Below are positions 140 to 59,442 of a stretch of 64,000 nt of DNA, piece after piece. The notes under the pieces were generated by a model. The model worked only from the letters and a program-made list of their open reading frames with translations. It was not told where the DNA came from and made no database searches. The position numbers were made by a program, and so were the translations under genes. The stretch is from Gemmatimonadaceae bacterium. Its GTDB lineage: Bacteria > Gemmatimonadota > Gemmatimonadetes > Gemmatimonadales > Gemmatimonadaceae. Numbering within the stretch: the stretch's first letter is position 1; each line of letters begins with the position of its first letter. The stretch is taken from positions 47,875 through 111,874 of the forward strand of contig DATFBY010000110.1 in the NCBI GenBank assembly GCA_035253585.1, read 5' to 3'.

Positions 140-1762
140 TCATGACGGCAGGTTGCGTACGAGCTCGAGGTTCGCACGGATGCGGTCGTTCCCGGGGTTG
201 AGCTCCAACGCACGCTCCCAGCAGGCGACCGCCTGATCCCGGTCCTGCCACTTGTAGCGGATGTTGCCGAGCTTGAAGTACACGTCGTCGCCGAGCGACG
301 GGTTCAGCTTCACTGCTCGCAGATAGGCTTCCATCGCCTCGTCGAGCTTCCCGCCGCGATAGTAGCAGTCGCCCATGTTCTTGTGCAGCTGCGGGAGCGA
401 GCGGTCCTCCTGAAGACCGCGCTCTCCCGCGTGCACTGCTGCCTGGAGATCGCCACGGCGCTCGTGAATGACTGCCAGTGTGTTGAACAGGGGCGCCGAG
501 TGCGAGTGCACGCCGATCCCCTCGTTGATCAGCGTGAGGGCGCGCTCGTGGTCCCCGCCTAACGCCGCGGCGAGTGACGCATAGTGGAACCAGGCGGCGG
601 AGGGCGGACGCTTGCCCCACAGTGCACGCGACGAGGACAGGATCGCGTTGGCGTGCTCGACGTCGCCGACCTTGAGCGACAGGATGCCTAACGAGAGCTG
701 GACCCGCGGATCGTCTCCACCGCCGCGCTGCACCGCCTCCTCGTACGCCGCGCGCGCCTCGCCGTACCGCTGCGTACGCTCCAATGCGAAGCCAAGATTA
801 TGAAAGACGGCGGCGCGCGCTCCCTGCTGCGCGGCGGCTTGCTGGAACAGCCGCACGGCCTCTTCCCAATGGGCCGAGCGCATGGCGACGAGACCGAGGT
901 AAAACCGCGCCTGGATGTCGTGCTCGCGCAGGTCGATCACGCGGCGGAACTCGCGCGTCGCTTCCTCGAACATCCCCGTCTTGTAGAACGCCATGCCGAG
1001 GTTGCGGTGCTCTTCGACCCGCGCCTCCTTCACGACGTCCTCTTGCGGGCGCGACTTGCCAACGCGATGGAGGAAGCCGGCGGTCACCAGACCGTAGATC
1101 GCCTTGCCCACCTCGAACTCGCCCAGGCCGGACGCATCGATGAGCTGGGTCACGTCACGGTCGCCGTCGATCAGTGGAACGAGCTGCTCCTGCTCCGGCG
1201 TGAGCTTGGCGTCGCTCGCCCCGAGGCGCGCGCGGTCGAGATCGAAGATGATGTCGAAGCTGGGCAGCTTCTTCTCGATGAGCCCCCACTCGTCCACCCG
1301 ACGCGCTCCCTCCAGGAGCAGCGTCTCGGGGTTGATCGACACCAACAGGTCGCGCTCGTCAGGCATCATGTCGGCCTCGAACGAGAACGTTCCCTGCGTC
1401 CAGGTGAAGAGGTAATAGACCGCTTCCTCGATCTGCATCCGGATGTAGCGGTGCAGCTCCTCACGGGTGAGGATCTTCTTTTCCATCAGGATCTCGCCAA
1501 TGCGCTTGTCGCGCTGGCGTGATTGCACCTCGATGGCGAGGTCGAGCTCGCGGCCGGTGATCACCCCGTGCTTCACCAGCATGTCGCCCAAGCGATCGCG
1601 CCGATTCACGATCGACGCGTACGAGATCCGGCCGCGGTCGAAGTACACATAGCCGAAGTTCGAGCGGTCGGTGACGCTCAGACATCCCGTCTTCTGCCCC
1701 ATGGCCAACAGCTGGAGCACGTCGGGCAGACTGGCTTCGCGGAGACTGCCTTTGATTGCCAT
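140..1762 (-). CDS. DUF4388-like N-terminal domain + TPR-repeat protein (last gene of the che/mglA array)
   Basis: The N-terminus MAIKGSLREASLPDVLQLL…GKTGCLSV… matches the DUF4388/PATAN-like pattern. The C-terminal half has multiple TPR-like repeats. The ATG at 1762 overlaps the TAA stop of the upstream gene (TAATG). Confidence 0.6.
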   Translation of the reverse strand: MAIKGSLREASLPDVLQLLAMGQKTGCLSVTDRSNFGYVYFDRGRISYASIVNRRDRLGDMLVKHGVITGRELDLAIEVQSRQRDKRIGEILMEKKILTREELHRYIRMQIEEAVYYLFTWTQGTFSFEADMMPDERDLLVSINPETLLLEGARRVDEWGLIEKKLPSFDIIFDLDRARLGASDAKLTPEQEQLVPLIDGDRDVTQLIDASGLGEFEVGKAIYGLVTAGFLHRVGKSRPQEDVVKEARVEEHRNLGMAFYKTGMFEEATREFRRVIDLREHDIQARFYLGLVAMRSAHWEEAVRLFQQAAAQQGARAAVFHNLGFALERTQRYGEARAAYEEAVQRGGGDDPRVQLSLGILSLKVGDVEHANAILSSSRALWGKRPPSAAWFHYASLAAALGGDHERALTLINEGIGVHSHSAPLFNTLAVIHERRGDLQAAVHAGERGLQEDRSLPQLHKNMGDCYYRGGKLDEAMEAYLRAVKLNPSLGDDVYFKLGNIRYKWQDRDQAVACWERALELNPGNDRIRANLELVRNLPS

Positions 1763-3906
1763 TAGCGGAGATCCTCGATCGCGCGGCCGGCCACGTCCTG
1801 CCACTCCCAGAGGATTTTCTCGTCGGAGATGAAGAGCGGATCACCCTTGCGTGCCGCCACCAGACCTTCGGCCGCCGTGCTCGGCGTCACGCCTTCGATC
1901 TCGCGGCGGGCGAGGCCGAGCGTCAAAGGCCGCGATTGCTGCACAGCCACCGTGACCAGGCGCTGAACCATCGCCCGGATCGACGGCGCATCGAACGTCG
2001 ACGTGTCCGCGAGATAGCTGACCAGTTGCGCGTCCGCGCGAACGCCGGCGGCGTCGAGATAACGTGCGTAAAGCTTCTCGCGCAGCATCCGATCCGCCGG
2101 TTGCAGCTCCACAACCAGTCCACCCTCGAAGCGCGACCGCAGCCGCTCGGCAAGATTGGTGAGCGCCTTGGGCTCGCGGTCGCTCGACAGAATGATCTGC
2201 TTTCCCTGATCGAAGACGGCGTTGAAGACGTGGAAGAGCTCTTCCTGCGTACGCTCCGTGCCGTCACACACCTGCACGTTGTCGAGCAGCAGCGCATCTA
2301 CGCCGCGATACCGCGCGCGGAATCGCTCGATGGATCCCTGCTGGATCGCGGTGATCAAATCATTGGCAAACTCGCGGACGTCGATCACGGCGACGCGCGC
2401 GGCGCCCCCGCTCAACGACGCCAGCTCGTTGCCGATGGCGTGCAGCAGATGCGTCTTGCCGGTCCCGGCCGGCCCGTGCAAGAAGAGCGGGTTGTATCGC
2501 TTCCCCGGCTCCTCGATGACCGCGTCCGAGGCGTGCACCGCGAACTGATTGGCGGCGCTCACTTCGTACGTCGCACGCGTGAACTGCGGATCCGGCGCCG
2601 GCGGCGGCTCCAGTCCATTGATGAGGTTCTCGACAACCTCTCTCGCTTCATCGATGCGCTCGGGATCGAAGAAGAGCTCGCTCGACGCCGTGACCGGATC
2701 GACCTTCCGCGCCTCAGCGCCGAGCTCCTGGAGCTGATCGATCTTGCGTTGGAACCCGGCGAGCAGCTGATCGACACCGGGGTCACTCGGAAGCTCCAGT
2801 GCCCGCTCGAGCTCGGTGGTCTTGAATCCAAGCTCCATCCAGAACGTGACCGCCTCGCCGATGCGCATCCGCCACGGCTCGATGTTTTGCGCGACGGCCG
2901 ATGCCAGGTCGGAGACGAAGCTGTCGAACTCCTCCGTGATCGGGATGATCTCGATCTCATCGGTCTCGATCGCAAACTCGTTATGCCGAGCCGTCGTGAC
3001 CGGCGGACTCGTCGGCGGCTTTGCCCCACCGTTGCCGTGTGCCGTGCCGGTCGGCGGCGGCGCACCGACGGTCGGCGGCGATGCCGGTACGCTCGGCGGC
3101 GTCCCGACAGGCATCGGTCCATGACCGACGATCGCGGCGGTAGCCGCGGACGCGGCACGCGCGATCGCGGGCAACGAGGCCGGCGTCGGCGTGTGACGGG
3201 CGCCGAGCACGGCGATCACCTGCTCGGCGCGAATCGGCTCGTCGGTGATTGCCTGATGCGCGATCATGCGATTCAGTGCGCCCTGCAATTCGCGCACGTT
3301 CGTGTATTCGAGCTTGGCCAGCGATTCGATCACGCCCTCGCCGAACGTCACGCCGCGCTCCTCGCACTTCTTCCGGAGAATGGCCACGCGCGTCTCGTAG
3401 TCAGGCAGCCCGATGTCGACGATGAGACCGCCTGACAAGCGCGTGATCAAACGTTCGTCCAGATCGGCGATCTCGGCCGGAGGCCGATCGCTCGTGAGCA
3501 CGATCTGCTTCCCGCTCCGCTGGAGCACATTGAACAGCCGCATGAGCTCGTTCTGCGTCTCGCGGCGACCGGCGATGAACTGCACGTCGTCGAGGAGCAG
3601 CATGTCGACCGTGTAGTACCGCTCCTTGAACGTGTCCATGCGCCCGGCGGACACCGCTTCATGCAGGCCGTCCACGAACTCGTCGAGCGAGGTGAACATC
3701 ACGTGCAGATCGTGCTGCTGCTGCTTGGCGAGGTTGCCGATCGCCAGCATGAGGTGCGTCTTCCCGAGCCCCGAGCTGCTGTACATGAAGAGCGGGTTGT
3801 ACGCCGAGCCCGGCGACTGCGCCACCGCGCGCGCGGCCGCGACCGCCAAGCGATTGGCGGCACCCACCACGTAGTTCTCGAAGCGGAAGCGTGGATCGAT
3901 GTTCAC
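1762..3906 (-). CDS. Tandem double DnaA-type AAA+ ATPase protein; no DnaA domain I/II or domain IV recognisable
   Basis: Two successive DnaA domain-III-like modules are present. The first reads FENYVVGAANRLAVAAA…YNPLFMYSSSGLGKTHLMLAIGN…LLLDDVQF. The second reads ANQFAVHASDA…YNPLFLHGPAGTGKTHLLHAIGN…LLLDNVQV. No HTTV-type DNA-binding motif is present at the C-terminus. Confidence 0.65.
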   Translation of the reverse strand: MNIDPRFRFENYVVGAANRLAVAAARAVAQSPGSAYNPLFMYSSSGLGKTHLMLAIGNLAKQQQHDLHVMFTSLDEFVDGLHEAVSAGRMDTFKERYYTVDMLLLDDVQFIAGRRETQNELMRLFNVLQRSGKQIVLTSDRPPAEIADLDERLITRLSGGLIVDIGLPDYETRVAILRKKCEERGVTFGEGVIESLAKLEYTNVRELQGALNRMIAHQAITDEPIRAEQVIAVLGARHTPTPASLPAIARAASAATAAIVGHGPMPVGTPPSVPASPPTVGAPPPTGTAHGNGGAKPPTSPPVTTARHNEFAIETDEIEIIPITEEFDSFVSDLASAVAQNIEPWRMRIGEAVTFWMELGFKTTELERALELPSDPGVDQLLAGFQRKIDQLQELGAEARKVDPVTASSELFFDPERIDEAREVVENLINGLEPPPAPDPQFTRATYEVSAANQFAVHASDAVIEEPGKRYNPLFLHGPAGTGKTHLLHAIGNELASLSGGAARVAVIDVREFANDLITAIQQGSIERFRARYRGVDALLLDNVQVCDGTERTQEELFHVFNAVFDQGKQIILSSDREPKALTNLAERLRSRFEGGLVVELQPADRMLREKLYARYLDAAGVRADAQLVSYLADTSTFDAPSIRAMVQRLVTVAVQQSRPLTLGLARREIEGVTPSTAAEGLVAARKGDPLFISDEKILWEWQDVAGRAIEDLR

Positions 3907-4545: not shown

Positions 4546-5076
4546 TCAGGCGGTTGGAGGCAGTAGCTCTTCGCTGACGCGTGACGACGGAACGGGCTCC
4601 GGTCCAAAGAGCGCCGCCAGACTTTGCTGCAGATCGTGCTCGAACTCGTCGCTCGCACCGAGAGACAGCTCTTCCGGCATCGTTGCGGGCGGCGGAGCGG
4701 CAGCCGCCAGCTGCCGCGCCAGCTCCCGAAAGTAGAACAGCACCAGTCCCGCCGAGCTTTCCGCACCGAACACGGTGAGGAACACCAGCGCGCCGCGCGG
4801 AGTGATCGTCTCCCCCAGAAAAAGCCGGCGATCGTTGTCGGCGTGAAAGAGCCGCGTGAACGGGCGACCATCCAGCTGCCGCCCCAGATGCGCCGCCGAC
4901 GCGTGGATCGCCGACGCCAGCGCACACGCCGACATCACGTCCACAGGGCTGGTGAAGCCGTACTGCGCCAGCACCTGGCCCGTCGGATGCAACAGCAGCG
5001 CGAAGGTGACTCGCGCCTCGTCCACGAACTGTCGAACGGGCGCTTCCACCCACGCCTCCGCCGCCGTCGTCCTCAC
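4546..5076 (-). CDS. Roadblock/LC7 (MglB-like) domain protein with a C-terminal tail
   Basis: The Roadblock-like core reads [16 protein letters not shown]…[27 protein letters not shown]. The GTG start overlaps the upstream stop (GTGA at 5073-5076). Confidence 0.55.
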
Positions 5077-12307: not shown

Positions 12308-12317
12308 GGGATTCCTT

Positions 12318-12406
12318 CGAGATTCGAGATTCGAGATTCGTGACGGCGGATATGGAGCTCGTTAGGTGTGCCGTTACGAATCTCGAATCTCGAATCTCGA
12401 ATCTCG
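12318..12406. repeat. Inverted tandem-heptamer hairpin element, (CGAGATT)3…(CGAATCT)4, intergenic between cheA and cheY
   Basis: Read directly. The two arms are exact inverse complements. The spacer contains ctcgttaggtg, a variant of the octamer. Confidence 0.85.
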
Positions 12407-12769
12407 CTATCCGAGCACCCGCTGCACCGCTTCCAGCACGCGGCTCGGCTGGAAGGGCTTCACCACGAAATCCTTCGCGCCCGCCTGAATCGCTTCGACC
12501 ACCAGCGCCTGCTGGCCCATGGCCGAGCACATCAGGATCTTCGCGTTCGGATCGACCTTCGTGATCTCGCGGACCGCGTCGATCCCGCCCATGTCGGGCA
12601 TCACGATGTCCATCGTCACCAGATCGGGACGCAGTTGGTTGTACTTCTCGATCGCCTGAACGCCGGTCTCCGCTTCGCCGATCACCTCGAATCCCGACTG
12701 CGTCAGGATGTCGGCGATCATTGTGCGCATGAAGATGGCGTCGTCGCAGACCAGCACGGTGTGACTCAA
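12407..12769 (-). CDS. cheY: CheY-like single-domain response regulator
   Basis: The receiver fold carries VLVCDDAIFMR, the phospho-acceptor D in LVTMDIVMPDMGG, and KPF. Confidence 0.85.
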   Translation of the reverse strand: MSHTVLVCDDAIFMRTMIADILTQSGFEVIGEAETGVQAIEKYNQLRPDLVTMDIVMPDMGGIDAVREITKVDPNAKILMCSAMGQQALVVEAIQAGAKDFVVKPFQPSRVLEAVQRVLG

Positions 12770-15160: not shown

Positions 15161-18100
15161 TTACACTCTCGTTAGGGCGACATCGACGGCACGACCATCA
15201 AGGTCCATCGTCTGCGTCGCGTCTGGCGTTCCAACGATTGCGTCACCGACGATGAGCTCGACCGCGAGCACCTCGCCGGTGATGTAATCGCCGAACATTC
15301 GTACCACGTTTTCGACTTCGACGTTCCCTTTCACCTGCAATTTGATGCGATCGCTGACCGCGAAGCCCGCGTCCTTCCGTAGACGCTGGATCCGACTCAC
15401 CAGCTCTCGCGCGACACCTTCGGCGACGAGCTCCGGCGTGAGCGTCGGATCGACCGCCGCAAAGTATCCGCCTTCCTCCTTCACGACCAGATCGCCCGCC
15501 GCTCGGTGAACGACGGTCAGGTCGTCTGGTTGCAACACATGTGACGATCCGCCGACCGAGATGACGACCGGCTCTCCGCGTTGGAACGCGTGCAGCGCGG
15601 AATCGGACAACGCCTCGACTGCTTCGGCCGCGGCCTTCGTCGACTTCCCGAATCGTTTGCCGAGCGCGCGGAAATTCGGCTTCCCCTCGAGCCGCACCAG
15701 TGCATCGCCGCTCGACGCCATCTCCACTCGCTTCACGTTGAGCTCGGCGCGCAGTAGTGGCTCCAGCAGCGCCAGAATCTCCGGGTCGCCACCGGGCACA
15801 ACGCATACCACGCGGGCCAACGGCTGCCGCACTTTCAGATCGGCCTCCTCGCGCGCCGCTCGACCCAGCCGCGCGAGCGTCCGCACCTGCTCCATGCCCG
15901 CCTCCAGATCCGCCTCGGGACGCATTCGTGTCTCGGTGACATAAGGCGCCAGATGCACGGAGGTTCCCGTGAGCTGCCGGTGCATCCAATCGGTCACGAA
16001 CGGTGAGAACGGGGCCAACAGGCGCGTCACGCCGGTGAGTACCTCGTGCAGCGTGGCGAAAGCGGCACGATTGTCCGCGCTGGTGACGTCGTAGAAGCGC
16101 TCGCGGTTGAGACGAACGTACCAGTTGGAAACGTCGTCGGTGACGAAGCGCATGACGGACCGCGCGGCGAGGTATGCATCGTATGCCGCCATGGCACCAT
16201 CGACTTCCACCGCGACGCGCGCCAAGCGACCGAGTATCCAACGGTCGATCGGTGGCCTGGCGGCCGGCTCCGGATCTTCGTTGGACGGCGTCCAGCCGAA
16301 GTTGGCCAACTGCGCGAACATCCCCGAATAGATGTTTTTGAGCGTAACGAGGAACTGTCCTGCCGTGTCCCTGATGCCACGTTCGTCGAATCGGCGCGGC
16401 ACCCAGATCTGGCTGGACGTGATGAGAAAAAGCCGCACGGCATCGGCCCCGTATCGAGGGATCACGCTCCACGGATCGACGACGTTGCCGGCGCTCTTCG
16501 ACATCTTCTGTCCCGCCGCGTCGAGCACCAGATCGTTCACGACGACGGCCCGGTACGGCGCCGCGAACGCGTTGGTCGCGGCAAGCCCGCCATCACCGCT
16601 GTTGTTCGGCAGCGCATCACCCAATCCGGTGGCGATGGCCAGCAGCGAGTAAAACCATCCCCTCGTCTGGTCGACACCCTCGGCGATGAAATCCGCCGGA
16701 TACAGTCGCTCGACCTCGGCCTTACCCTCGAACGGATAGTGCCACTGCGCGAACGGCATCGAGCCCGAGTCGAACCAGGTGTCGATGACTTCGGGGACGC
16801 GGTGCATTCGCGCGCGAGATTCGAGATTCGAGATTCGAGATTCGCCGGTGGTGTCGGTCGATCTTTCGTTGGCCTCCGAATCTCGAATCTCGAATCTCGA
16901 ATCTCGACAGCTTTCACACTCCCACGTCAGCCTATCCACCCCCGGCTTGTGCGGATCGAACTCGTTAGGCAGCGATCCGCCGAGCTTGGCCGCGAGCTCG
17001 GCGTAGCTGCCGATTACATCGATGTGTGAGTCGTCGCGCTCGCATAACCATACTGGGAGTGGCGTGCCCCAGTAGCGGTCGCGCGACAGCGCCCAGTCGA
17101 CGTTGTTGACCAGCCACTCGCCGAAGCGGCCAGTGCCGACCTCCTCCGGATGCCAGTCGACTCGCGCGTTGCGCGACAGCATCTGGTCGCGATACGCGGT
17201 GGTGCGCACGAACCAGGAGCCGCGTGCGTAGTACAGGAGCGGTGTGCCGCACCGCCAACAGTGGGGATAGCTGTGCTCGATCGTACCCGCTTTCTGGAGT
17301 ACGCCGCGGCGCTTGAGCTCCTCGATGATGAGCGGGTCGGCGGCCTTCACGAATTTGCCACCCACGACCGGCATGTCCGCGGGAAATTCTCCGCGCGCGT
17401 TGACCGGCTGCAGAAACGCGAGCCCGTGTCGCTGGCCTGCCGCGTAGTCATCGGCGCCAAATGCCGGTGCCATGTGCACGACGCCGGTGCCATCCTCAGC
17501 CGACACGAACGACTCGGCGACGATCAGCTCGTGCTCCCCTTCTCCATCGGTAAACGGCACCCAGTCGAGCGGCCGCTCGTAGCGACGCCCCGCGAGCTCG
17601 CTCCCCTTGATCCGCCTAACGATCTCCCACCGATCGGTCCAGTCGTCGCCGAAAACGGATGCGACGCGAGAGGAGGCGAGGATCAAAGTGGGAAGCGGGA
17701 AGCGGGAAGCGGGAACCGCCTGCGGCGGTTGAGCGTGGCGCCGACGGATCTCCAAATACTCGAGATCTGGATTCACCGCGAGCGCTACGTTGGAAACGAG
17801 CGTCCAGGGCGTCGTCGTCCACACGAGGATACGCTGTTCGTGCGCTTCCCGCTTCCCGCTTCCCGCTTCCCGCATTGCGCTTCCCGCTTCCCGCAGCTTC
17901 ACCGCCACATACACACTCGGATCCTTCACGTCCTTATATCCCTGCGCCACTTCGTGGCTCGACAGCGCCGTGCCGCAGCGGGGGCAGTACGGAAGAATCT
18001 TGTGGCCGCGATAGAGCAGGCCGCGATCGTACAGCGTGCGCAGCGCCCACCACACGCTTTCGACGTAATCGTTCTCGTACGTGATGTATGGATCGCTGTA

Positions 18101-18556
18101 GTCGAGCTGATAGCCGATCCGATCGCTGAGCCTTTCCCAGTCCGACTTGTACTTCCACACACTCTCGCGCGAGAGCTTGTTGAAGCGCTCGACGCCGATC
18201 TCCTCGATCTGCTGCTTGCCGCTGATGTTGAGCTGCTTCTCGACTTCGATCTCAACCGGCAGACCGTGCGTGTCCCAACCCGCTTTTCGGGTGACGTGAT
18301 AGCCCTTCATCACGCGGTAGCGGCAGAAGAGATCCTTCACCGTCCGCGAAAACACGTGATGGATGCCCGGCTTCCCGTTCGCCGTCGGCGGACCCTCGTA
18401 GAACACGAACTCCCGAGCGCCGGCGCGAGCGCGCTCGATCGCGCCGAAGAGATCTTCATCCGCCCAGCGGCGAAGCATCTCCTGCTCGATGTCATCCGCC
18501 GGCCGGTCGGGTGGGAGGAGCGCGAAGCGGTCCACGCCGGGATCGATCGCGGTCAC
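15161..18556 (-). CDS. ileS: Isoleucyl-tRNA synthetase, carrying two in-frame repeat-element insertions
   Basis: The IleS motifs WTTTPWTL, a KMSKS-like motif (KMSKSAGN) and [21 protein letters not shown] are all present. The 1131-aa product is longer than typical IleS because of two heptamer-repeat insertions. Confidence 0.9.
16815..16906. repeat. Inverted tandem-heptamer hairpin element, (CGAGATT)4…(CGAATCT)4, inserted in-frame in ileS
   Basis: Read directly. It encodes …[32 protein letters not shown]…, which lies between the Zn-finger CESC and the conserved MHRVPEV of IleS. Confidence 0.85.
17690..17717. repeat. (GGGAAGC)4 tandem-heptamer arm inside ileS
   Basis: Read directly. The inverted partner arm lies at 17844-17892. 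Confidence 0.85.
17844..17892. repeat. (GCTTCCC)6 tandem-heptamer arm inside ileS, inverted partner of 17690-17717
   Basis: Read directly. The two arms flank the conserved WTTTPWTL core of IleS. The frame is maintained, encoding [17 protein letters not shown]…. Confidence 0.85.
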
Positions 18557-24317: not shown

Positions 24318-24365
24318 CGGGCGGGCGAGCGGGAGCGCCCGCTCCCGAATGCGCCAGACGATCAT

Positions 24366-24461
24366 CGAGATTCGAGATTCGAGATTCGAGATTCGGAAGG
24401 GCACACCGCACGAGGTCCGAATCCGCAGTCCCGAATCTCGAATCTCGAATCTCGAATCTCG
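24366..24461. repeat. Inverted tandem-heptamer hairpin element, (CGAGATT)4…(CGAATCT)4, intergenic between ftsH and folP
   Basis: Read directly. It begins about 3 nt after the ftsH stop codon and has a 36-nt spacer. Confidence 0.85.
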
Positions 24462-24465
24462 ATGC

Positions 24466-32744: not shown

Positions 32745-33296
32745 TCAGCTGTCGGCATTCGCCGACTCTTCCAGCGGTGCCACCACCGCGGTCCCACCAT
32801 GCATCTCGACGACGACGACGCTCTTCCACCGATCGGGCGCTTCGGCGTCGGCGCCTAACGGGCGCGCCAGCAGCTCGAACGACCGGTCGCCCCGGCGCAC
32901 CAGGACCTTGCCCGGCGCCCCGCGCGACAACGGAATCGTCACGCGCCCCGCGAGCCCGACGAAGCTTTGATCGCCCTCACGCGCGCCGGAGTCCGCGCGT
33001 CGCAAGTATTGGAACACGGCCGCCGACGTTCCGCCGAGCGCCAGGCCTACGGTGACTGCCAGCGCGAACGAGAGCCAACCCGATCCACTCCAGATCCAGC
33101 TGAGTCCCGCGCCGGTCGCTCCGAAACCGAAGAGGAAGTAGGTCAGCGTCCGCAGCGAGAGGAGCTTGAACCCCTCGTGATCGTGCGACGCGTCCGCATG
33201 CGCGACATCTCCTCCGTGATGCCCGACATCTCCGAGCACCGAGAAGAGCAGCAATCCTCCGCCAACGATGAGGGAGAAGAGGTAGAGGCCGAGCAT
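32745..33296 (-). CDS. NfeD-like membrane protein (partner of the flotillin)
   Basis: TM helices plus a C-terminal OB-fold-like segment GRVTIPLSRGAPGKVLV. It sits upstream of the SPFH gene, as is typical. Confidence 0.6.
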   Translation of the reverse strand: MLGLYLFSLIVGGGLLLFSVLGDVGHHGGDVAHADASHDHEGFKLLSLRTLTYFLFGFGATGAGLSWIWSGSGWLSFALAVTVGLALGGTSAAVFQYLRRADSGAREGDQSFVGLAGRVTIPLSRGAPGKVLVRRGDRSFELLARPLGADAEAPDRWKSVVVVEMHGGTAVVAPLEESANADS

Positions 33297-33473
33297 GTGA
33301 TCTAACTACGAGAAGGAGGCTTGAACGGTGTCAGTGGCCGGCGGTGCCGTCAAGAATGACAACGGCGGCATCCGGCATGAGGCACGAGGCATCCGGGTCT
33401 TGGCGATCGACACTCTCCGCCCAAGACCCGGATGCCCCGATGCCGGATGCCGGATGCCGCCGTTCGCGCTGCT

Positions 33474-34766
33474 CTATCTGTGCTGAAACTGCTCCGCTTC
33501 CGTCGACCCGTGCAGTGCGGCGGTGGAGGAAGTACCGCCGGTGATCGTCATCAGCACCTGATCGAAGTAGCCGGTCCCCGCTTCGCGCTGGTGTTTGGCC
33601 GCGGTGTAGCCGTCCTTCTCGCGCGCGAACTCTTGCTCCTGCACTCGCACGTAGGCCGGCATTCCCTCGTCCCGATATGCCGCGGCCAGCTCGAACGCGT
33701 TCAAGTTGATCAGGTGCCACCCGGCCAGCGTGATGAACTGGAACTTGTAGTTCATCGCACCGAGCTCGCGCTGGAATCGCGCGATCGTTCCTTCGTCGAT
33801 GTTCTTCCGCCAGTTGAACGACGGCGAGCAGTTGTACGCCAGCATCTTTCCCGGGTACCGCGCGTGGATCGCATCGGCGAAGCGGCGCGCCTCTTCGAGG
33901 TCGGGCTTCCCCGTCTCGAACCACAGCAGATCGGCGATCGGCGCATACGCTAGCGAGCGCGTGATCGCCGCTTCGAGTCCGCCGCGCACCACGTAGTAGC
34001 CCTCGGCAGTGCGCTCACCTGTCGCGAATTCGCGGTCCACATCATCGATGTCGCTCGTCAGCAGCGTGGCCGAAAGCGCATCGGTGCGAGCCACCAGCAC
34101 CGTCGGCACATCGAGCACGTCCGACGCCAAGCGCGCGGCCGTCAGTGTCCGTACGAACTGCGACGTCGGTACCAGGACCTTGCCGCCGAGATGACCACAT
34201 TTCTTTTCCGCCGCGAGCTGGTCCTCGAAGTGCACCCCGCCGGCGCCCGCTTCGATCATGGCCTTGGTGAGCTCGAAGGCGTGCAGCGGCCCACCGAAGC
34301 CGGCTTCCGCATCGGCGACGATCGGCGCCATCCAGTACCGGCCGTTGCGCCCTTCGCTCCAGTCGATCTGGTCCGCGCGCATGAGCGCGTTATTGAGCCG
34401 CCTAACGAGCGCGGGCACACTGTTGCTCGGGTAGAGACTCTGGTCGGGATAAGTCTGCGCGGCCAGATTGCCGTCGGCAGCCACCTGCCATCCGGACAGG
34501 TAGATCGCCTGCAGTCCCGCCTTCACCATCTGCACCGCCTGCGCGCCTGTGAGCGCGCCGAACGTGTGCACGTAGTCTTCCTGCTCGAAGAGGTCCCACA
34601 AGCGCTCGGCCGCCTTGGTCGCCAACGTGTATTCCACGTTGAAGCTACCTCGCAAACGGATCACTTCTTCCGCCGTGTAGCTCCGCGCCACGCCCCGCCA
34701 ACGCGGGTCTCTTGCCCAGCGATCGGCGAGCGCCTTGGCCTCGGTGGTCACGTCGATCTCGCTCAT
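33474..34766 (-). CDS. aceA: Isocitrate lyase
   Basis: The ICL signature is in KKCGHLGGK. The [10 protein letters not shown] motif is present. Confidence 0.9.
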
Positions 34767-37078: not shown

Positions 37079-37141
37079 AGAGAGGGATTGAGGGATGCAC
37101 GACGGGGCGCTCAATGAGCGCCCCGTCGTGCATCCTCCGAC

Positions 37142-37387
37142 TCACTCACCTATTGGCGGCCCGCCGTCCCCTTTGTGACGGAAAGTGATTCGACCGCGGC
37201 TCAAGTCGTAGGGAGACACCTCGATCGTCACCCGGTCGCCCGCGAGGACGCGAATTCGAAACCGGCGGAGCTTCCCGCCGAGCGTCGCTAGAACCATGTG
37301 TCCGTTGTCGAGCTCGACGCGAAACGTCGCGTTGGGGAGAATCTCGCTGACGGTCCCCTCGAGCTCGATGGCTTCCTGCTTCGCCAT
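37142..37387 (-). CDS. infA: Translation initiation factor IF-1
   Basis: S1-like fold with a near-canonical IF-1 sequence ([13 protein letters not shown]…FRVELDNGH…YDLSRGRI). Confidence 0.9.
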
Positions 37388-37561
37388 ACCACTCCTGTCT
37401 TGCACGACCCGACGCGAGCGCGAATCGCTCGCGGAACCATGAAACGTACCGCGCACCGCACGGTGAAGCAACGTACATGGCGCCTTGCTCGCTTGCGTCG
37501 CTCCAGCGCTCGCTGTCAATTCGATGAGCGCACGTCATCCGTTACAACATCCGCGCCTTAC

Positions 37562-40075
37562 GTGAAAAAATTTCTCTCCGCGGCCGTCACCGCGCTCGCC
37601 GTCGTCGCACTGTCGCTCGGTCTGTTCGCCGGCGCCCGGCCGCTGGGATCCGCGCCGCCGCTCGGCCCGCTGCTCGATCCGGCGAATGGATTCTGGGCAG
37701 TGGCCCAGGCCGCGGAGCTTCCCGCTCGATCGCGGGGCGTCATCACCGGCCTCGGCGCACGGGTGCGCGTTGTCTACGATCGCCGCGGCGTTCCGCACAT
37801 CTTCGCTGCGTCCGAGGAAGATGCGTATCGCGCGCTCGGCTATGTCGTGGCGCGAGATCGGCTCTTTCAACTCGACATTCAGACGCTGGCCGCGTCCGGA
37901 CGCTTGACGGAGATTGCCGGCCGACTGGCGCTTCCAGTGGATCGGGAGACGCGCGGGCTCGGGCTTCCACGCTCCGCCGAGAAACGCCTCGCCGCGCTCG
38001 ATACGACGCGCTCCGCGGAACGCGCGGTGGTTGCGTATGCGGATGGGATCAACGCCTGGATCGATGCGATGCGTCCCGGCGACGTACCGGTGGAATACAG
38101 GCTGCTCGGACGCGCGCCGGAGCGGTGGCGTCCCGAAAATTCGATGCACCTGTTGAATCGAATGTCGTATACGCTGGCGCGGCAAACCACCGAGATCGAC
38201 CGGCTCGCCATAGCGCGGCGCGTTGGCCGTGAGGCGGCCGAAGCTCTTCTGCCAATCGACATGCCGATTCAGGAGCCGATCGAGCCGAACGGGAGCGATG
38301 CGCCGCGCTTCGACGTGAAGCCTCTTCCGCCACCGGGTGCGCCGGAGTCACGCGATGCGAGCGCGGTCTCGTCAGGCGACCCGCTCGCGCTTCTCCTCGC
38401 GGCTGCCGCTACACGCGATCGCGATGAAGCGCCGGGGAGCAACAACTGGGCGGTCGCTCCGTCGCGCACCAAGAACGGCTACGCGTTGCTGGCAGGCGAT
38501 CCGCACCTCGAGCTCACGCTGCCATCGATCTGGTACGAGGCCCACATCGTCGTTCCTGGAAAGCTCGATGTCTACGGAGTGACGCTTCCCGGGCTGCCCT
38601 TCGTGATCATCGGCTTCAATCGCGACATTGCCTGGACGTTCACCAACGTCGGCTCGGACGTTCTCGACTTCTTTTCGGAGACGGTAGACGACACGACACG
38701 TCCCACCCGGTATCGGGTCGATGGACAATGGCGTCCGCTCGAGCTGCGGATGGAGCGCTACCGTGACCGTGCCGGGAACGAGATCGCCCGCGACACGCTG
38801 TATTTCTCGCACCGCGGACCGCTCACTCGTCAGCTCGGGGGTTGGGCCTCCATGCGGTGGACGGCGCTCGATGTCACCACCGAGGCAAGCAACTTCGAGC
38901 GCATAGCGCACGCGACGACAGTCGATCAGTTCCTCGAGGCGATGGCGACGTACCGCGTGCCCGCGCAGAACATGCTGGTGGCCGACCGCCAGGGAAACAT
39001 TGCCATCCGCTCCACCGGAGTCTACCCGATTCGCGCCGGTGATGGTCGCGGTGACATCGTGCGCGACGGTTCGCGGAGTGCCAATGACTGGCAAGGGTCG
39101 CTGCCGGTGGCCGAGTACCCCTTCGCCAAGAATCCGCCGCGCGGCTTTCTCAGCTCGGCCAACCAGCAGCCGGTCGATCCGGCGGTTCGCTCCAGATACT
39201 TGGGATTCGAGTGGCCGTCGCCATGGCGTGCGATGCGGATCAACGAGCTTCTCCGCACCGATACCGCAGTCACGCCTGACGCGATGCGTCGGTACCAGCT
39301 CGATCCTCGATCGCCGCGCGCCGAGATCTTCGTCACCGCGTTCTTGGAGGCGGCACAGCGGCGTCGCGCGGCCGGCCGGTCCACCCCGGAGCTGGATCGC
39401 GCGCACGCGCTCCTCGCTGAATGGAAGCGCGAGTATACGCCGGGCGACGAGCGCGCAGTGTTGTTCGAGATGGCGATGCGCCAGCTCACCAACCGAACCT
39501 GGGATGAGCTCAATCGGCCGGCGGAGGACACGACCTCTGGGTCGATGCGCGTCGCCACTCCGAGCGCGGCACCGATGATCTCATTGCTGCGCACACCTGA
39601 CAGCCCCTGGTGGGACGTCCTCGCGACGCCTAACGAGAGAGAGACGCGAGATGACATCCTCACCGCCAGCCTCGAGGCCGCCCTCGACACGACGCTTCGA
39701 GCGTATGGGGAGCCGGACGGGGGCGGCTGGCGCTGGGACCGCGTGCTGCGCGCGCGGATCGATCACTTGTTAGGCATCGGGCAGTTCTCGCGACGCCGAC
39801 TGGGCTTTCAGGGGGGGCCAGGACTCCTCAACCCATCGTCTTTCAACAGCGAGCACGGGGCGAGCTGGCGCATGGTCGTGGAGCTCGGCCCGACGGTGCG
39901 AGCGTGGGCCACATATCCCGGTGGTCAGTCAGGCAATCCGGTGAGCAGCCGCTACGACGACCGCTTGGACGCCTGGCTCCAAGGACGTCTTGATTCACTC
40001 GTCGTACCGCGTACGCCGACAGAGCTCGACAGTGCACGCGTTCTCTCGACGCTTACTCTGGATCCTCCGACATGA
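37562..40075 (+). CDS. Penicillin-acylase-family (S45 Ntn-hydrolase) protein, AHL/penicillin acylase-like
   Basis: The motif SNNWAVAPSRTKNGYALLAGDPHL carries the N-terminal nucleophile Ser. A signal peptide is present. Start chosen at GTG 37562; an ATG at 37439 is an alternative. Confidence 0.7.
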   Translation: MKKFLSAAVTALAVVALSLGLFAGARPLGSAPPLGPLLDPANGFWAVAQAAELPARSRGVITGLGARVRVVYDRRGVPHIFAASEEDAYRALGYVVARDRLFQLDIQTLAASGRLTEIAGRLALPVDRETRGLGLPRSAEKRLAALDTTRSAERAVVAYADGINAWIDAMRPGDVPVEYRLLGRAPERWRPENSMHLLNRMSYTLARQTTEIDRLAIARRVGREAAEALLPIDMPIQEPIEPNGSDAPRFDVKPLPPPGAPESRDASAVSSGDPLALLLAAAATRDRDEAPGSNNWAVAPSRTKNGYALLAGDPHLELTLPSIWYEAHIVVPGKLDVYGVTLPGLPFVIIGFNRDIAWTFTNVGSDVLDFFSETVDDTTRPTRYRVDGQWRPLELRMERYRDRAGNEIARDTLYFSHRGPLTRQLGGWASMRWTALDVTTEASNFERIAHATTVDQFLEAMATYRVPAQNMLVADRQGNIAIRSTGVYPIRAGDGRGDIVRDGSRSANDWQGSLPVAEYPFAKNPPRGFLSSANQQPVDPAVRSRYLGFEWPSPWRAMRINELLRTDTAVTPDAMRRYQLDPRSPRAEIFVTAFLEAAQRRRAAGRSTPELDRAHALLAEWKREYTPGDERAVLFEMAMRQLTNRTWDELNRPAEDTTSGSMRVATPSAAPMISLLRTPDSPWWDVLATPNERETRDDILTASLEAALDTTLRAYGEPDGGGWRWDRVLRARIDHLLGIGQFSRRRLGFQGGPGLLNPSSFNSEHGASWRMVVELGPTVRAWATYPGGQSGNPVSSRYDDRLDAWLQGRLDSLVVPRTPTELDSARVLSTLTLDPPT

Positions 40076-56958: not shown

Positions 56959-59442
56959 CTATTTGTCGAAGCCCTTTGGGGCGAATGTCAGCGTGAAGAG
57001 ATAGCTCTCTTCGCCACGTTCCGACTTGGGGAAGATCCAATTTCGGACACGCTCGCGCACGCAGCTTTCGACCTTGGTTGCGGTCTTTCCAGCCATCTGG
57101 CGTTTGGTGATGGCAGCCGAGTGGACGCGGCCGGTGATGCCGACCTTCGTAGAAACCGTGAGCGATCCGGCGAGCTTCGGCTCGATTGCCAGTCCGTCGA
57201 GATAACACAGCTCGAACTGGAGGCGCTGCCCCTTCAGGAATTCGCGCACCTGATCAGGGTCCTTCGTCGCCACTCGAACGCGCTCGGCTTCCTCGCTGAG
57301 TGGAGCCGGCCGGTTCTCGAACCGAATCGAGTCGACCGGAATCGCGGAGCCCGGTGCCTCGCCGCGCTCTTTCCGTGATTTCTCGTAGGCGCGCATTGCG
57401 AGCGTGATGAAGTCTTCCGCTTCCCGAACCTTGTGCTCGTTGGCGCTGTCGCGCGCCGCTCGCTGCGCCGCCGCACGGTCGGCTGCCGCCTTCTCGGCCG
57501 CCGCTTTTTCCGCCGCTGCACGCTCCGCTGCGGCCTTCTCCGCCGCCGCCCTCTCTGCTGCCAATCTCTCGCGCTCGGCCTTCTCGGCCGCGGCCCTCTC
57601 TGCTGCCAATCTCTCGCGCTCCGCCTTCTCGGCCGCGGCGCGTTCCGCGGCAATTCGCTCCCGCTCGGCTCTCTCCGCAGCGGCTCGCTCGGCTGCCAGT
57701 CGCTCGCGCTCCGCTTTCTCGGCGGCGGCGCGTTCGGCCGCCAGCTTCTCCGCGGCTGCCTTCTCGGCTGCTAGACGTTCGCGCTCTGCCTTCTCGGCGG
57801 CTGCTCGCTCCGCGGCGAGGCGTTCTCGTTCGGCGCGCTCGGCGGCAGCCTTCTCCGCCGCGGCTTTCAATGCGGCAGCTCGCTCCGCGACACGTCGCTC
57901 GGCATCGGCCTTTTCCGCGGCGGCTTTCTCGGCCGCGGCACGTTCCGCTGCCGCTCTCTCTGCCGCGGCACGCTCGGCTCTTGCTTTCTCCGCGGCGGCT
58001 CGCTCCGCGGCGGCCTTTTCCGCGGCGGCCTTTTCCGCTGCCGCTCTCTCCGCCGCGGCTCTCTCCGCTGCGGCTTTTTCTGCGGCACGCTTCTCAGACG
58101 CAAGGCGCTCAGCTTCCGCTCTCTCGGCCGCGAGCCGCTCGCGTTCAGCCTTTTCAGTCGCGGCGCGCTCGGCGGCAGCTTTCTCGGCGGCCAACTTCTC
58201 GGCTGCTGCTCTCTCGGCGGCCGCTTTCACCGCCGCGGCCTTCTCCGCGGCGATCCGTTGCGATTCGGCTCTTTCCGCCGCAGCCCGTTCGGCGGCGGCT
58301 CGCTCCGATGCCGCTCTTTCGGACGCCGCGCGTTCAGCCGCCGCGCGTTCAGCCGCCGCGCGTTCAGCCGCCGCGCGTTCAGCCGCCGCGCGTTCAGTCG
58401 CCGCGCGTTCAGTCGCCGCGCGCTCCGATGCCGCCTTCTCCGCCAGAGCCTTCTCCGCCGCCGCTCTCTCCGCTGCGGCCCTCTCTGAGCGAGCGCGCTC
58501 TACCGCCGCACGCTCCGCCGCCGCGCGCTCCGCCGCGAGCTTCTGCCGCTCACGCTCGAGCGCCGCTCGTTCCGCTGCGATCTTTTCTTCGGCGGCCCTC
58601 GCCGCGGCCAGACGCTCTTCCGCCGCCCGCGCGGCAGCGGTCCGCTCCGCCGCCTCTTTTTCCCTCGCCGCGCGTTCCGTTGATTCGAGCGTCGTGCTCG
58701 CCGTCGAGCGCTCCCGCGGCGCCGCTTGCGCGGGCTGGGCCGCCTGACGAGCGCTCGGCCGCTCCGCGGTGCCAGTAGCAGCGGAAGGCGCCGGCGCGCG
58801 CTCTTCGGGCGTCAGCATCGCCACGCGTTGCTCGGCGGGACCATTAGCGCTCGGCGCGGTGCGCGCCGACGCCACTGTCCGCGAAGGCGACGTCATCTCC
58901 CGAGTTCGGTTCGCCGCCTGCGCCAGGGCCGGGAGCAGCTCGCCGATGGACATCTCCGGCACTCGAACGACGAGCCCCTCGTTTCCCGCACCGATCCTGA
59001 TGATCAATCCAGGATAGTCACCCTCCGTGTACAGCTCGAAGATCACGGCATCGCTCGAGAGCCCCGCGGTACGCAGCGTCGGCTCGGCGCGCCCCATGAC
59101 CCGACGCCGTGGCCGACCGAGGATCGTGTTGGCGGAGTCGATCCACGCCAGCAGCGAGAACGCGTCGAGAGTTTTCGGTTTGGTGAAGGCGTCACGGTAG
59201 CCGGGCGACGCGAACAACTGTACCATCCCGTTGTTGGTCGCTCGCACCCAAACCGTCGCCGCTCCAAACTGAAAGGAGCCGGTCTCCTCGAACCGCGTCT
59301 GCGCCGTCAGGGGCGCCGCGTGAACGGCCAGAGCACCGATCGCGGCGAGTAGGGGTAGTGAGAGTACCGGCGTAAATGCCGTTCTGACCTGGGCGAGACG
59401 CACGACGACAAGACTCCAAAAGTGGGGGTCTCTCTCCTCCAT
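56959..59442 (-). CDS. Secreted ~830-aa protein with a ~400-aa (A-A-E-R/K-A)n low-complexity tract and a conserved C-terminal domain
   Basis: Signal peptide present. The tract is encoded partly by perfect 15-bp tandem repeats. Confidence 0.5.
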   Translation of the reverse strand: MEERDPHFWSLVVVRLAQVRTAFTPVLSLPLLAAIGALAVHAAPLTAQTRFEETGSFQFGAATVWVRATNNGMVQLFASPGYRDAFTKPKTLDAFSLLAWIDSANTILGRPRRRVMGRAEPTLRTAGLSSDAVIFELYTEGDYPGLIIRIGAGNEGLVVRVPEMSIGELLPALAQAANRTREMTSPSRTVASARTAPSANGPAEQRVAMLTPEERAPAPSAATGTAERPSARQAAQPAQAAPRERSTASTTLESTERAAREKEAAERTAAARAAEERLAAARAAEEKIAAERAALERERQKLAAERAAAERAAVERARSERAAAERAAAEKALAEKAASERAATERAATERAAAERAAAERAAAERAAAERAASERAASERAAAERAAAERAESQRIAAEKAAAVKAAAERAAAEKLAAEKAAAERAATEKAERERLAAERAEAERLASEKRAAEKAAAERAAAERAAAEKAAAEKAAAERAAAEKARAERAAAERAAAERAAAEKAAAEKADAERRVAERAAALKAAAEKAAAERAERERLAAERAAAEKAERERLAAEKAAAEKLAAERAAAEKAERERLAAERAAAERAERERIAAERAAAEKAERERLAAERAAAEKAERERLAAERAAAEKAAAERAAAEKAAAEKAAADRAAAQRAARDSANEHKVREAEDFITLAMRAYEKSRKERGEAPGSAIPVDSIRFENRPAPLSEEAERVRVATKDPDQVREFLKGQRLQFELCYLDGLAIEPKLAGSLTVSTKVGITGRVHSAAITKRQMAGKTATKVESCVRERVRNWIFPKSERGEESYLFTLTFAPKGFDK
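58322..58426. repeat. About 7 tandem copies of the 15-bp unit GCCGCCGCGCGTTCA (encodes ERAAA on the minus strand)
   Basis: Read directly. Confidence 0.85.

Follow-up and report, generated by a model that had tools for sequence, protein, structure and literature searches.

Convergent pairs of tandem heptanucleotide arrays have been described in Xanthomonas, where a genome carries 183-186 (GGGAATC)n arrays, two of which converge in 70-75 instances (Rehm et al. 2015, PMC4692102). The arrays most often comprise approximately four units and were interpreted as G-quadruplex formers. They lie mainly between genes near the ends of open reading frames (ORFs), with 7-11% being intragenic; 83% of positions are conserved between two species, and no link to mobile elements or insertion sequences was found (PMC4692102). 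Nostoc possesses a counterpart in the form of GGGGA(C/T)T tandem repeats (PMC4692102). Here, we describe two hairpins with arms of tandem 7-nt units, E1 and E2, within the isoleucyl-tRNA synthetase gene (ileS) of a soil bacterium of the Gemmatimonadaceae, together with related hairpins elsewhere in the 64-kb stretch of DNA that was analysed (contig DATFBY010000110.1, 65% G+C; hereafter, the window). The repeat type itself was previously described, and the nearest known class is that of the convergent heptameric repeat pairs of Xanthomonas rather than the Rickettsia palindromic elements (RPEs) to which a first-pass annotation of this DNA had likened the ileS elements. E1 and E2 are probably dispersed palindromic repeats whose tandem 7-nt arms evolve by slippage and by recombination between the arms.

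RPEs form families of approximately 150 bp with a conserved consensus, each of which encodes a conserved peptide (PMC10969869). Repetitive extragenic palindromic sequences (REPs) are, as outlined in PMC3733652, imperfect palindromes of 20-40 nt with a GTAG or CGTC head. Among longer simple sequence repeats (SSRs), the heptanucleotide is the commonest class in most surveyed genomes, which has been attributed to polymerase slippage (Mrazek et al. 2007, as cited in PMC4679880).

Results

Two heptamer hairpins lie within the open ileS frame

The ileS gene occupies positions 15161-18556 on the minus strand and encodes a type-2 (eukaryote-like) isoleucyl-tRNA synthetase (IleRS) of 1131 amino acids, as assigned from the ORF listing and similarity to IleRS2 enzymes. 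As previously annotated, the 1131-codon frame is open from end to end. The top relative of solved structure is the Priestia megaterium IleRS2 (8c8w), matched in two stretches with an E-value of 5.8e-243. The KMSKS and WTTTPWTL motifs are present and invariant across the alignment and, together with full-length IleRS2 similarity, place the enzyme within type 2. Some of its 120 nearest homologues bear the NCBI name "Gemmatimonadaceae isoleucine--tRNA ligase". Between the window and a second strain (L002, an independent European Nucleotide Archive assembly, 99.625% identical over 16.8 kb), ileS differs by 14 single-nucleotide polymorphisms (SNPs), 11 synonymous and three non-synonymous, with one of the latter located within the E1 loop. 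Judged by this excess of synonymous differences, ileS is a functional gene on which purifying selection persists.

The first element, E1, spans 16815-16906. Read in the sense of ileS (minus strand), it has the form (GAGATTC)4-32 nt-(GAATCTC)4. The mRNA-5′ arm, (GAGATTC)4 in sense, starts at codon 551 (16877-16906); the 32-nt loop (16845-16876) contains two SNPs between the two strains, and the mRNA-3′ arm, (GAATCTC)4 (16815-16844), is 100% complementary to the 5′ arm. Each arm measures 30 nt and holds 4.3-4.4 perfect heptamer units. A 15-mer of the E1 motif, GAGATTCGAGATTCG, has 18 matches in the window compared with 0.36 expected from shuffles.

The second element, E2, comprises two arrays with 36-nt, 92% complementary arms separated by 122 nt. 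The G-rich array (17842-17894, minus strand) reads (GGGAAGC)2-GCAATGC-(GGGAAGC)4 in sense and encodes residues 222-238 in the hypervariable loop preceding WTTTPWTL; on the forward strand it appears as (GCTTCCC)7.4 with one aberrant unit. The C-rich array (17684-17719, minus strand) reads GGTTCCC-(GCTTCCC)3 in sense, or approximately four GGGAAGC units on the forward strand, and encodes residues 281-289 (VPASRFPLP) in a second editing-domain loop. The stretch between them (17720-17842, minus strand) is repeat-free host sequence that includes the codons for the invariant WTTTPWTL (W246-L253). Seven window matches to a 15-mer of the E2 motif were found against 0.42 expected.

The repeat structures reported by the first-pass annotation were confirmed at both loci. 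Its description of them as two insertions does not extend to E2, which is not a single inserted element but two arrays in two separate protein loops, with 122 nt of conserved coding sequence native to ileS enclosed between them. The two E2 peptides, both annotated as Gly/Ala/Arg/Glu-rich, are in fact unlike each other, since only that of the upstream array has this composition while the downstream VPASRFPLP is Pro/Ser/Phe/Leu-rich.

The strong mRNA hairpins that had been anticipated are predicted for both elements, with folds of -59 kcal/mol for E1 (z -7.2 versus shuffles) and -123.8 kcal/mol for the 231 nt of E2 (z -6.2). The predicted RNA stem of 25-34 bp in each copy could influence mRNA processing or translation speed. 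Arrays in the tested hairpins consist of 3.6-7.4 head-to-tail 7-nt units. No U-run follows the 3′ arm of any hairpin in the window sequence, and intrinsic terminators were rejected on this ground. Similarly, a known RNA family was rejected as the identity of the hairpins, since Rfam returned no match in the entire window.

The ileS repeats are predicted to form disordered surface loops

When IleS was compared with 8c8w, residues 552-582 matched a single reference residue at a site that follows the CxxC knuckle and precedes MHRVPEV. Residues 225-238 had no counterpart, and approximately 14 surplus residues were found around 272-290. In an AlphaFold2 model of IleS (61 sequences, mean predicted local distance difference test (pLDDT) score of 83), pLDDT falls below 50 solely at residues 1-7, 226-236, 279-286, 555-578 and 654-663. 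The first of these stretches is the N-terminus, the next three are encoded by the repeats and the last is another lineage-specific loop. The model thus shows the ileS repeats as translated into disordered surface loops of approximately 31, 17 and 9-16 residues, in agreement with the surface location proposed by the first-pass annotation. Their effect on IleRS is probably neutral.

Separately, an extra loop of approximately 17 residues at positions 646-663 (window 16591-16644) has no equivalent in the P. megaterium enzyme. It is common to a sister species (L001), has no repeat origin and coincides with the low model confidence at 654-663.

The 120 closest homologues, with lengths of 1067-1193 residues, served as a sample of the IleS family. 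Length differences among them cluster at few sites, and the loops that hold the ileS repeats are free to vary in length within the family. At the E1 site, 96 of the 120 proteins possess just 4-6 residues (consensus C-xGT-M, or three residues where E1 adds approximately 30), which agrees with the earlier claim that the segment is extra relative to orthologues; a native orthologous loop at E1 was accordingly rejected. Inserts of 24-56 residues occupy the site in about ten of the 120. In the loop preceding WTTTPWTL, even the "native" form is hypervariable and has come mostly from heptamer repeats.

Three further hairpins occupy spacers in the window

Five hairpins are present in the 64 kb, three of which lie in spacers abutting stop codons and were missing from the first-pass annotation. 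One takes up the spacer that separates a cheY-like gene, with its stop at 12407, from cheA, which starts at 12307: located at 12316-12406, it is a GAGATTC hairpin of 4+3 units with a predicted fold of -58.9 kcal/mol (z -8.1). Another, at 24363-24464 in the ftsH-folP spacer, is a GAGATTC hairpin of 4+4 units with perfect 34-nt arms and a predicted fold of -78 kcal/mol (z -9.1); two degenerate units of the GGATTCG/GGACTGC type are found on the loop side of one arm. The third (33361-33464) is decayed, with GGCATCC-type heptamer arms, and lies between the isocitrate lyase gene (33474-34766) and ORF 32745-33296; the region 33350-33475 has a predicted fold of -86 kcal/mol (z -9.8).

The GAGATTC unit is therefore common to three window hairpins, two of them in operon spacers, and although the GAGATTC arms of E1 and of the cheY-cheA and ftsH-folP hairpins are identical, their loops are mutually dissimilar. 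All four intact hairpins are convergent with the G-rich array first. Arrays of more than three units are always paired, no solo array above three units being present in the window. No target-site duplication was found at any of the copies in the window or at the 10 inspected from metagenomes. Among the approximately 40 window proteins scanned, no transposase, reverse transcriptase or RAYT (REP-associated tyrosine transposase) domain was identified; for the genes between cheA and ftsH, the Pfam list of syntenic L001 was used instead.

The units GAGATTC, GGGACTC (from L001) and GGGAATC (from Xanthomonas) each contain GANTC, a CcrM/HinfI-type site, such that their arrays present a GANTC every 7 bp. 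Beyond the hairpins, GANTC is mildly under-represented in the window, with 267 sites observed against 322 ± 17 expected. GANTC sites were rejected as the key to the repeats, given that GGGAAGC, GGGAAAC and GGGGATT lack the site and that depletion elsewhere is only mild.

Hairpins change by whole units at conserved positions

The arms of E1 and E2 are identical in the window and in L002. Misassembly, which the first-pass annotation had named as a concern, is excluded by the agreement of this second strain's independent assembly. Across the 16.8 kb compared, there is a sole indel, a single 7-nt unit of the cheY-cheA hairpin, which has 4+3 units in the window (12316-12406) and 4+4 in L002 (9576-9673).

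Two more distant genomes extend the comparison: L001, which is syntenic with the window and has an IleS 82% identical, and L118, which is 96% identical to L001 in ileS. In the 23 kb common to the window and L001, all four hairpin positions are occupied in both. The cheY-cheA and ftsH-folP hairpins begin at the identical nucleotide after the stop codon, with GAGATTC units in the window and GGGACTC units in L001. The GGATTCG/GGACTGC units inside the ftsH-folP copy of the window point to change in place and not to replacement by a new insertion. In the L001 cheY-cheA arms, GGGACTC and GGCACTC alternate and the pattern is mirrored in the complementary arm. Between L001 (16072-16167) and L118 (11447-11549), the loop of this hairpin is reverse-complemented while the arms are unmoved; in the inverted alignment the loops show two mismatches only, and the arms differ in length by one 7-nt unit. 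Such a loop flip between fixed arms is the hallmark of recombination, or of template switching, from one arm to the other. As read from these alignments, the repeats evolve fast: the arms change by whole 7-nt units, carry mirrored variants, flip their loops and keep their positions while their units are replaced.

Within ileS, the E1 site of L001 holds a degenerate purine-rich hairpin and that of L118 only six codons (C-RESRAV-M) with one GAATCCC unit kept. These two genes of 96% identity show an 84-nt presence/absence difference. The E2 arrays persist in both genomes as degenerate relics only. In a clade of six IleS proteins that are mutually 83-88% identical, an E1-site hairpin was found in all six, built of GGGAAAC or GGGGATY units whose distribution is out of step with relatedness.

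The region around E1 in L118 (7020-7085) encodes WECGSC, which is nearer to WECESC of the window than to WPCRIC of L001, and L118 also shares the nine extra codons of the window at the downstream E2 site. That L118, which is L001-like overall, resembles the window around E1 suggests that recombination between lineages may have occurred within ileS; L118 appears to be locally mosaic.

Heptamer hairpins recur at two hot spots of IleS and in other organisms

We screened the 120 IleS proteins for a peptide encoded by a heptamer array that has, no more than 70 residues further on, the peptide encoded by the array's reverse complement. The screen revealed 23 in-frame heptamer hairpins in at least 17 of the proteins, all at two hot spots (approximately residues 220-265 and 540-570) and all with the G-rich arm leading. 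Inspection of the DNA of two of these loci (L106 and L107) confirmed in-frame hairpins in both hot-spot loops, with GGGAAAC, GGGGATY and GGGGATT units. Many homologues, such as that of L105, instead carry a lone G-rich heptamer-like tract in the loop preceding WTTTPWTL. At least four separate lineages possess an E1-site insert that their nearest relatives lack, two of these being clear heptamer hairpins and two more complex. In one ileS gene (L119, P0003), the E1 site (4650-4750) contains a solo in-frame (AGTCGCC)4 array with variants and no complementary arm, and the loop preceding WTTTPWTL contains a complete (GGGGCCA)n/(TGGCCCC)n hairpin; its closest relative (L120, 85% nucleotide identity) is without either insert.

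In-frame translation is not peculiar to ileS or to the Gemmatimonadaceae, since a metagenome contig of 53% G+C (Ga0187865_1000139; L112) carries a GAGATTC hairpin in frame within a CoA-transferase gene (2876-2963), at a site in the second CoA-transferase family III domain of the 788-residue protein. GAGATTC hairpins are also present in Acidobacteriota-like contigs of 53-60% GC. Some lower-GC soil contigs contain one such hairpin per 2-3 kb, far denser than in the window, as exemplified by L108 (5973-6047 and 8576-8641) and L109 (1670-1713, 3260-3328 and 5250-5313). In L109, the hairpin at 3260-3328 lies just upstream of where a gene for a translation-factor-like GTPase starts. A structure of another kind was observed in the ftsH-folP spacer of another Gemmatimonadaceae genome (L105, 5986-6151), namely a 166-nt composite palindrome with 36-nt arms, 92% complementary, in which GGGAAGC motifs are interleaved with a second small hairpin.

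Broader searches were of limited reach. The translated E1 arms, compared with 5.8 billion proteins, matched 45 short ORFs only (46-104 residues), apparently translated spacer copies; this search recovered not even IleS and is uninformative on host genes. A scan of a genome collection for (GAGATTC)3 yields neither a measure of copy number in this species nor evidence of enrichment and, among the matches listed, those from other phyla were mostly plain direct arrays. A metagenome scan for the full hairpin returned lower-GC organisms alone and not this species.

The G-rich arm precedes its complement

The polarity and period of hairpins were assessed in approximately 0.97 Mb of fetched DNA, in which most loci had been chosen by their heptamer pattern. 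The G-richer array was 5′ in 31 of the 32 tandem-arm hairpins, approximately 10 of which were primary matches in ten metagenome loci (L108-L117) where the search pattern itself fixes polarity. In the hairpins unselected for polarity (three window GAGATTC copies, nine listed from the genome collection and four secondary metagenome copies), the G-rich arm came first in 16 of 16. By period, this heptamer-biased sample contained 32 tandem-arm hairpins of period 7, three of period 5 and none of period 6 or 8-11.

Other features of the window

Positions 37093-37135 form an inverted repeat, GGATGCACGACGGGGCGCTCA / TGAGCGCCCCGTCGTGCATCC, whose perfect 21-nt arms are separated by 1 nt. It is non-heptameric and lies just 5′ of a penicillin-amidase-family gene (37298-40075), where it is a candidate terminator or operator. 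At 56959-59442 (minus strand), an 827-residue protein is encoded, with a hydrophobic N-terminal stretch that resembles a signal peptide and approximately 430 central residues of (A-A-E-R/K-A)n pentapeptide repeats. The underlying DNA (57479-58536) exhibits tandem periods of 15, 30, 45, 75 and 90 nt, and the protein has only weak Pfam matches to low-complexity families (HC2, Extensin). Finally, a 714-residue protein (1762-3906, minus strand) is of unusual architecture, with a DnaA-type ATPase domain present twice (two stretches matching Pfam Bac_DnaA); its gene adjoins TPR/PatA_N (DUF4388) genes that follow the chemotaxis cluster on its downstream side.

Discussion

A G/purine-rich array at the 5′ side with its complement at the 3′ side, on either strand, is the same architecture as that of the convergent (GGGAATC)n pairs of Xanthomonas. 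For its origin, slippage and recombination between arms are favoured over transposition. We propose that replication slippage in 7-nt steps would enlarge and homogenise each array, while recombination or template switching between the arms would keep them mirror-identical and sometimes flip the loop. Exchange restricted to arms, or a shared trans-acting preference, may homogenise the units among loci, with the loops left to drift freely. In ileS, purifying selection on IleRS would discard copies that are out of frame, contain stops or fall outside permissive loops. E2 could have arisen from an old G-rich array in one loop, its complement being placed 122 nt downstream in a second permissive loop. 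It suits slippage and exchange better than insertion; both of its arrays have relics in the sister species.

Several points weigh against this account. Why slippage and template switching should yield a strict G-arm-first polarity is not obvious, whereas such polarity would be expected of terminal inverted repeats that a protein recognises. The absence of solo arrays of more than three units from the window implies that pairs are possibly born paired. For one unit to be shared by dispersed loci of a genome while the sister genome has another at the same loci, either the loci must exchange sequence or a factor must act in trans, and neither was observed in the 64 kb and the loci compared. GAGATTC hairpins in Acidobacteriota-like contigs of 53-60% GC are, in addition, compatible with horizontal spread. 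The evidence base is the 64-kb window and a few loci of 10-20 kb, considered at the level of sequence.

Strict polarity, the lack of solo arrays and genome-wide unit sharing thus leave room for a protein-mediated process. In one form, the identity of the unit would be set by the genome, with an orientation-specific machinery maintaining or rewriting arrays at fixed sites; we consider this rather unlikely. Candidates for the machinery could include a heptad-binding protein, a nuclease, a transposase or a very efficient arm-restricted conversion. Were this true, all hairpins of a genome, those of ileS included, would switch 7-mer together while their positions were long-lasting, and the strict polarity would be the footprint of a repeat-maintenance system without a described counterpart. 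A dedicated factor driving unit turnover would raise the interest of these repeats far higher.

A more conventional protein-mediated alternative is that the hairpins are non-autonomous mobile elements of the RPE type or of the MITE type (miniature transposable elements with inverted repeats), the arrays being terminal inverted repeats for a transposase or nuclease encoded elsewhere. Repeated insertion would then be followed by survival of only those copies in frame within permissive IleRS loops. Multiple copies with identical arms and strict polarity fit this explanation, as do the E1-site inserts of at least four lineages with insert-free nearest relatives, the 84 nt present in only one of L001 and L118, whose genes are 96% identical, the in-frame GAGATTC hairpin in the unrelated CoA-transferase gene of another organism and the occurrence of the same unit in another phylum. 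Conversely, the loops of three window copies are unrelated despite perfect arms, target-site duplications are absent and 122 nt of conserved host sequence separate the E2 arms. Orthologous copies have exactly alike boundaries and different units, the older-type units inside the new arms of the ftsH-folP copy indicate change in place, and the scan of window proteins revealed no transposase-like domain. We therefore regard mobility as possible but doubtful. What stands of the RPE-type mobile palindromes invoked by the first-pass annotation is an in-frame, dispersed palindromic family; the sharing of arms only, the unrelated loops and the lack of target duplications do not fit.

The repeats might otherwise be selected features of ileS itself, either native functional loops or RNA structures by which, at the edges of the editing domain and of the zinc knuckle, ribosomes are paused or mRNA processing is controlled. 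The same two loops are filled in many lineages, most homologues carry G-rich heptamer-like tracts in the loop preceding WTTTPWTL, the stems are far stabler than shuffled controls and, in a biased sample, the coding-sequence heptamer hairpins at three loci are all in ileS. This explanation nevertheless appears improbable: sequence, unit and length are unconstrained, most homologues lack an E1-site insert, identical hairpins reside in unrelated spacers, the E1 site of L118 has collapsed to six codons and the inserts are predicted to be disordered. Still less probable is a definition of the arrays as G-quadruplex-forming repeats, as read for the heptamers of Xanthomonas and Nostoc. (GGGAAGC)n, (GGGACTC)n, (GGGAAAC)n and (GGGGATT)n do contain at least four GGG tracts, and GGGAATC repeats were reported to form G-quadruplexes in vitro (PMC4692102). 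However, the dominant unit GAGATTC has no G-tract, yet it shows the same architecture, polarity and genomic positions, and among the window arrays four or more G3 tracts are confined to the E2 G-array. G-quadruplex formation was rejected as the shared property because GAGATTC, the unit of E1 and both spacer copies, has no G-tract; the common property must therefore be the hairpin or recognition of the heptad. Collapsed or chimeric repeats, which can be mis-joined in short-read metagenome assemblies, have a negligible chance of explaining the data. The independent L002 assembly contains identical E1 and E2 arms at 99.6% identity over 16.8 kb with 14 ileS SNPs, the ileS frame stays open and related hairpins occupy the same loops in five other assemblies; an assembly artefact was rejected on the strength of the second strain.

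Convergent heptamer arrays, a poorly studied class, are shown here not to be confined to spacers. They can be carried long-term as translated, disordered loops of an aminoacyl-tRNA synthetase and, across a family, recur at the same two or three permissive loops. The comparisons provide direct sequence evidence on how such hairpins evolve, through 7-nt steps, mirrored variants, loop inversion and replacement of units at kept positions, and G-quadruplex formation is not the common denominator of the class. In practice, the inserts inflate and confuse IleRS alignments and spacer copies yield spurious "hypothetical proteins", while the hairpins constitute natural strain-level markers.

Comparison with described repeat systems

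RPEs resemble the present hairpins in that they are in-frame palindromes in unrelated housekeeping genes, tolerated as extra peptide (PMC10969869); here, too, palindromes compatible with the fold are found in frame in unrelated genes, namely ileS and the CoA-transferase III gene of L112. The differences are that the heptamer arms alone are shared, the elements measure 60-100 nt and unit and loop together determine the peptide. Furthermore, the phylum is another, and the three GAGATTC copies have no whole-element consensus, their loops being unalignable.

REPs, bacterial interspersed mosaic elements (BIMEs) and REPINs (REP doublets forming hairpins) are likewise short, multi-copy palindromes between co-directional genes that are homogeneous within a genome, differ between genomes and persist at orthologous sites. 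In contrast to the REPs, the arms here are tandem heptamers of 25-34 nt beginning CGAGATT and have no GTAG or CGTC head; both E1 and E2 lie within a gene, and no RAYT gene was found in the 64-kb window. Bacterial MITEs such as Correia, ERIC (enterobacterial repetitive intergenic consensus) and BOX elements share small size, terminal inverted repeats and occasional in-frame insertion (PMC10969869). The present hairpins differ from these in lacking target-site duplications and a conserved interior, and no related autonomous insertion sequence was identified in the window.

Heptanucleotide SSRs share with the hairpins a 7-nt unit and variable copy number. The TAACTGA repeats of Beggiatoaceae and cyanobacteria form direct arrays, with one inverted of 170 sets (PMC4679880), whereas convergent complementary pairs are the form seen here. 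Palindromic amphipathic repeat coding elements, or PARCELs, are coding repeats with DNA dyad symmetry, translatable in either orientation, but constitute domains of 25 residues in tandem within surface proteins of unknown function and not heptamer-armed hairpins within housekeeping enzymes.

The Xanthomonas and Nostoc repeats are the closest match, with their tandem 7-nt units, convergent arrays on opposite strands, potential stem-loops and dispersed distribution. Positions are kept between related genomes, as seen here for the window and L001, and the units are related, with GGGACTC occurring in the sister genome and GGGGATT in L107. Relative to the consensus GGGANTN of this class, GAGATTC has a mismatch at position 2 and GGGAAGC has one at position 6, whereas GGGACTC of L001 fits and the inner ftsH-folP units GGATTCG/GGACTGC are close to GGGACTC. 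The main unit here, GAGATTC, differs in having no G-tract, which renders the quadruplex reading inapplicable. Four features of the present repeats are absent from PMC4692102: in-frame translation within an aminoacyl-tRNA synthetase, recurrence in the same loops across a protein family, sister genomes with a different unit at the same loci, and a pair, E2, that brackets native coding sequence.

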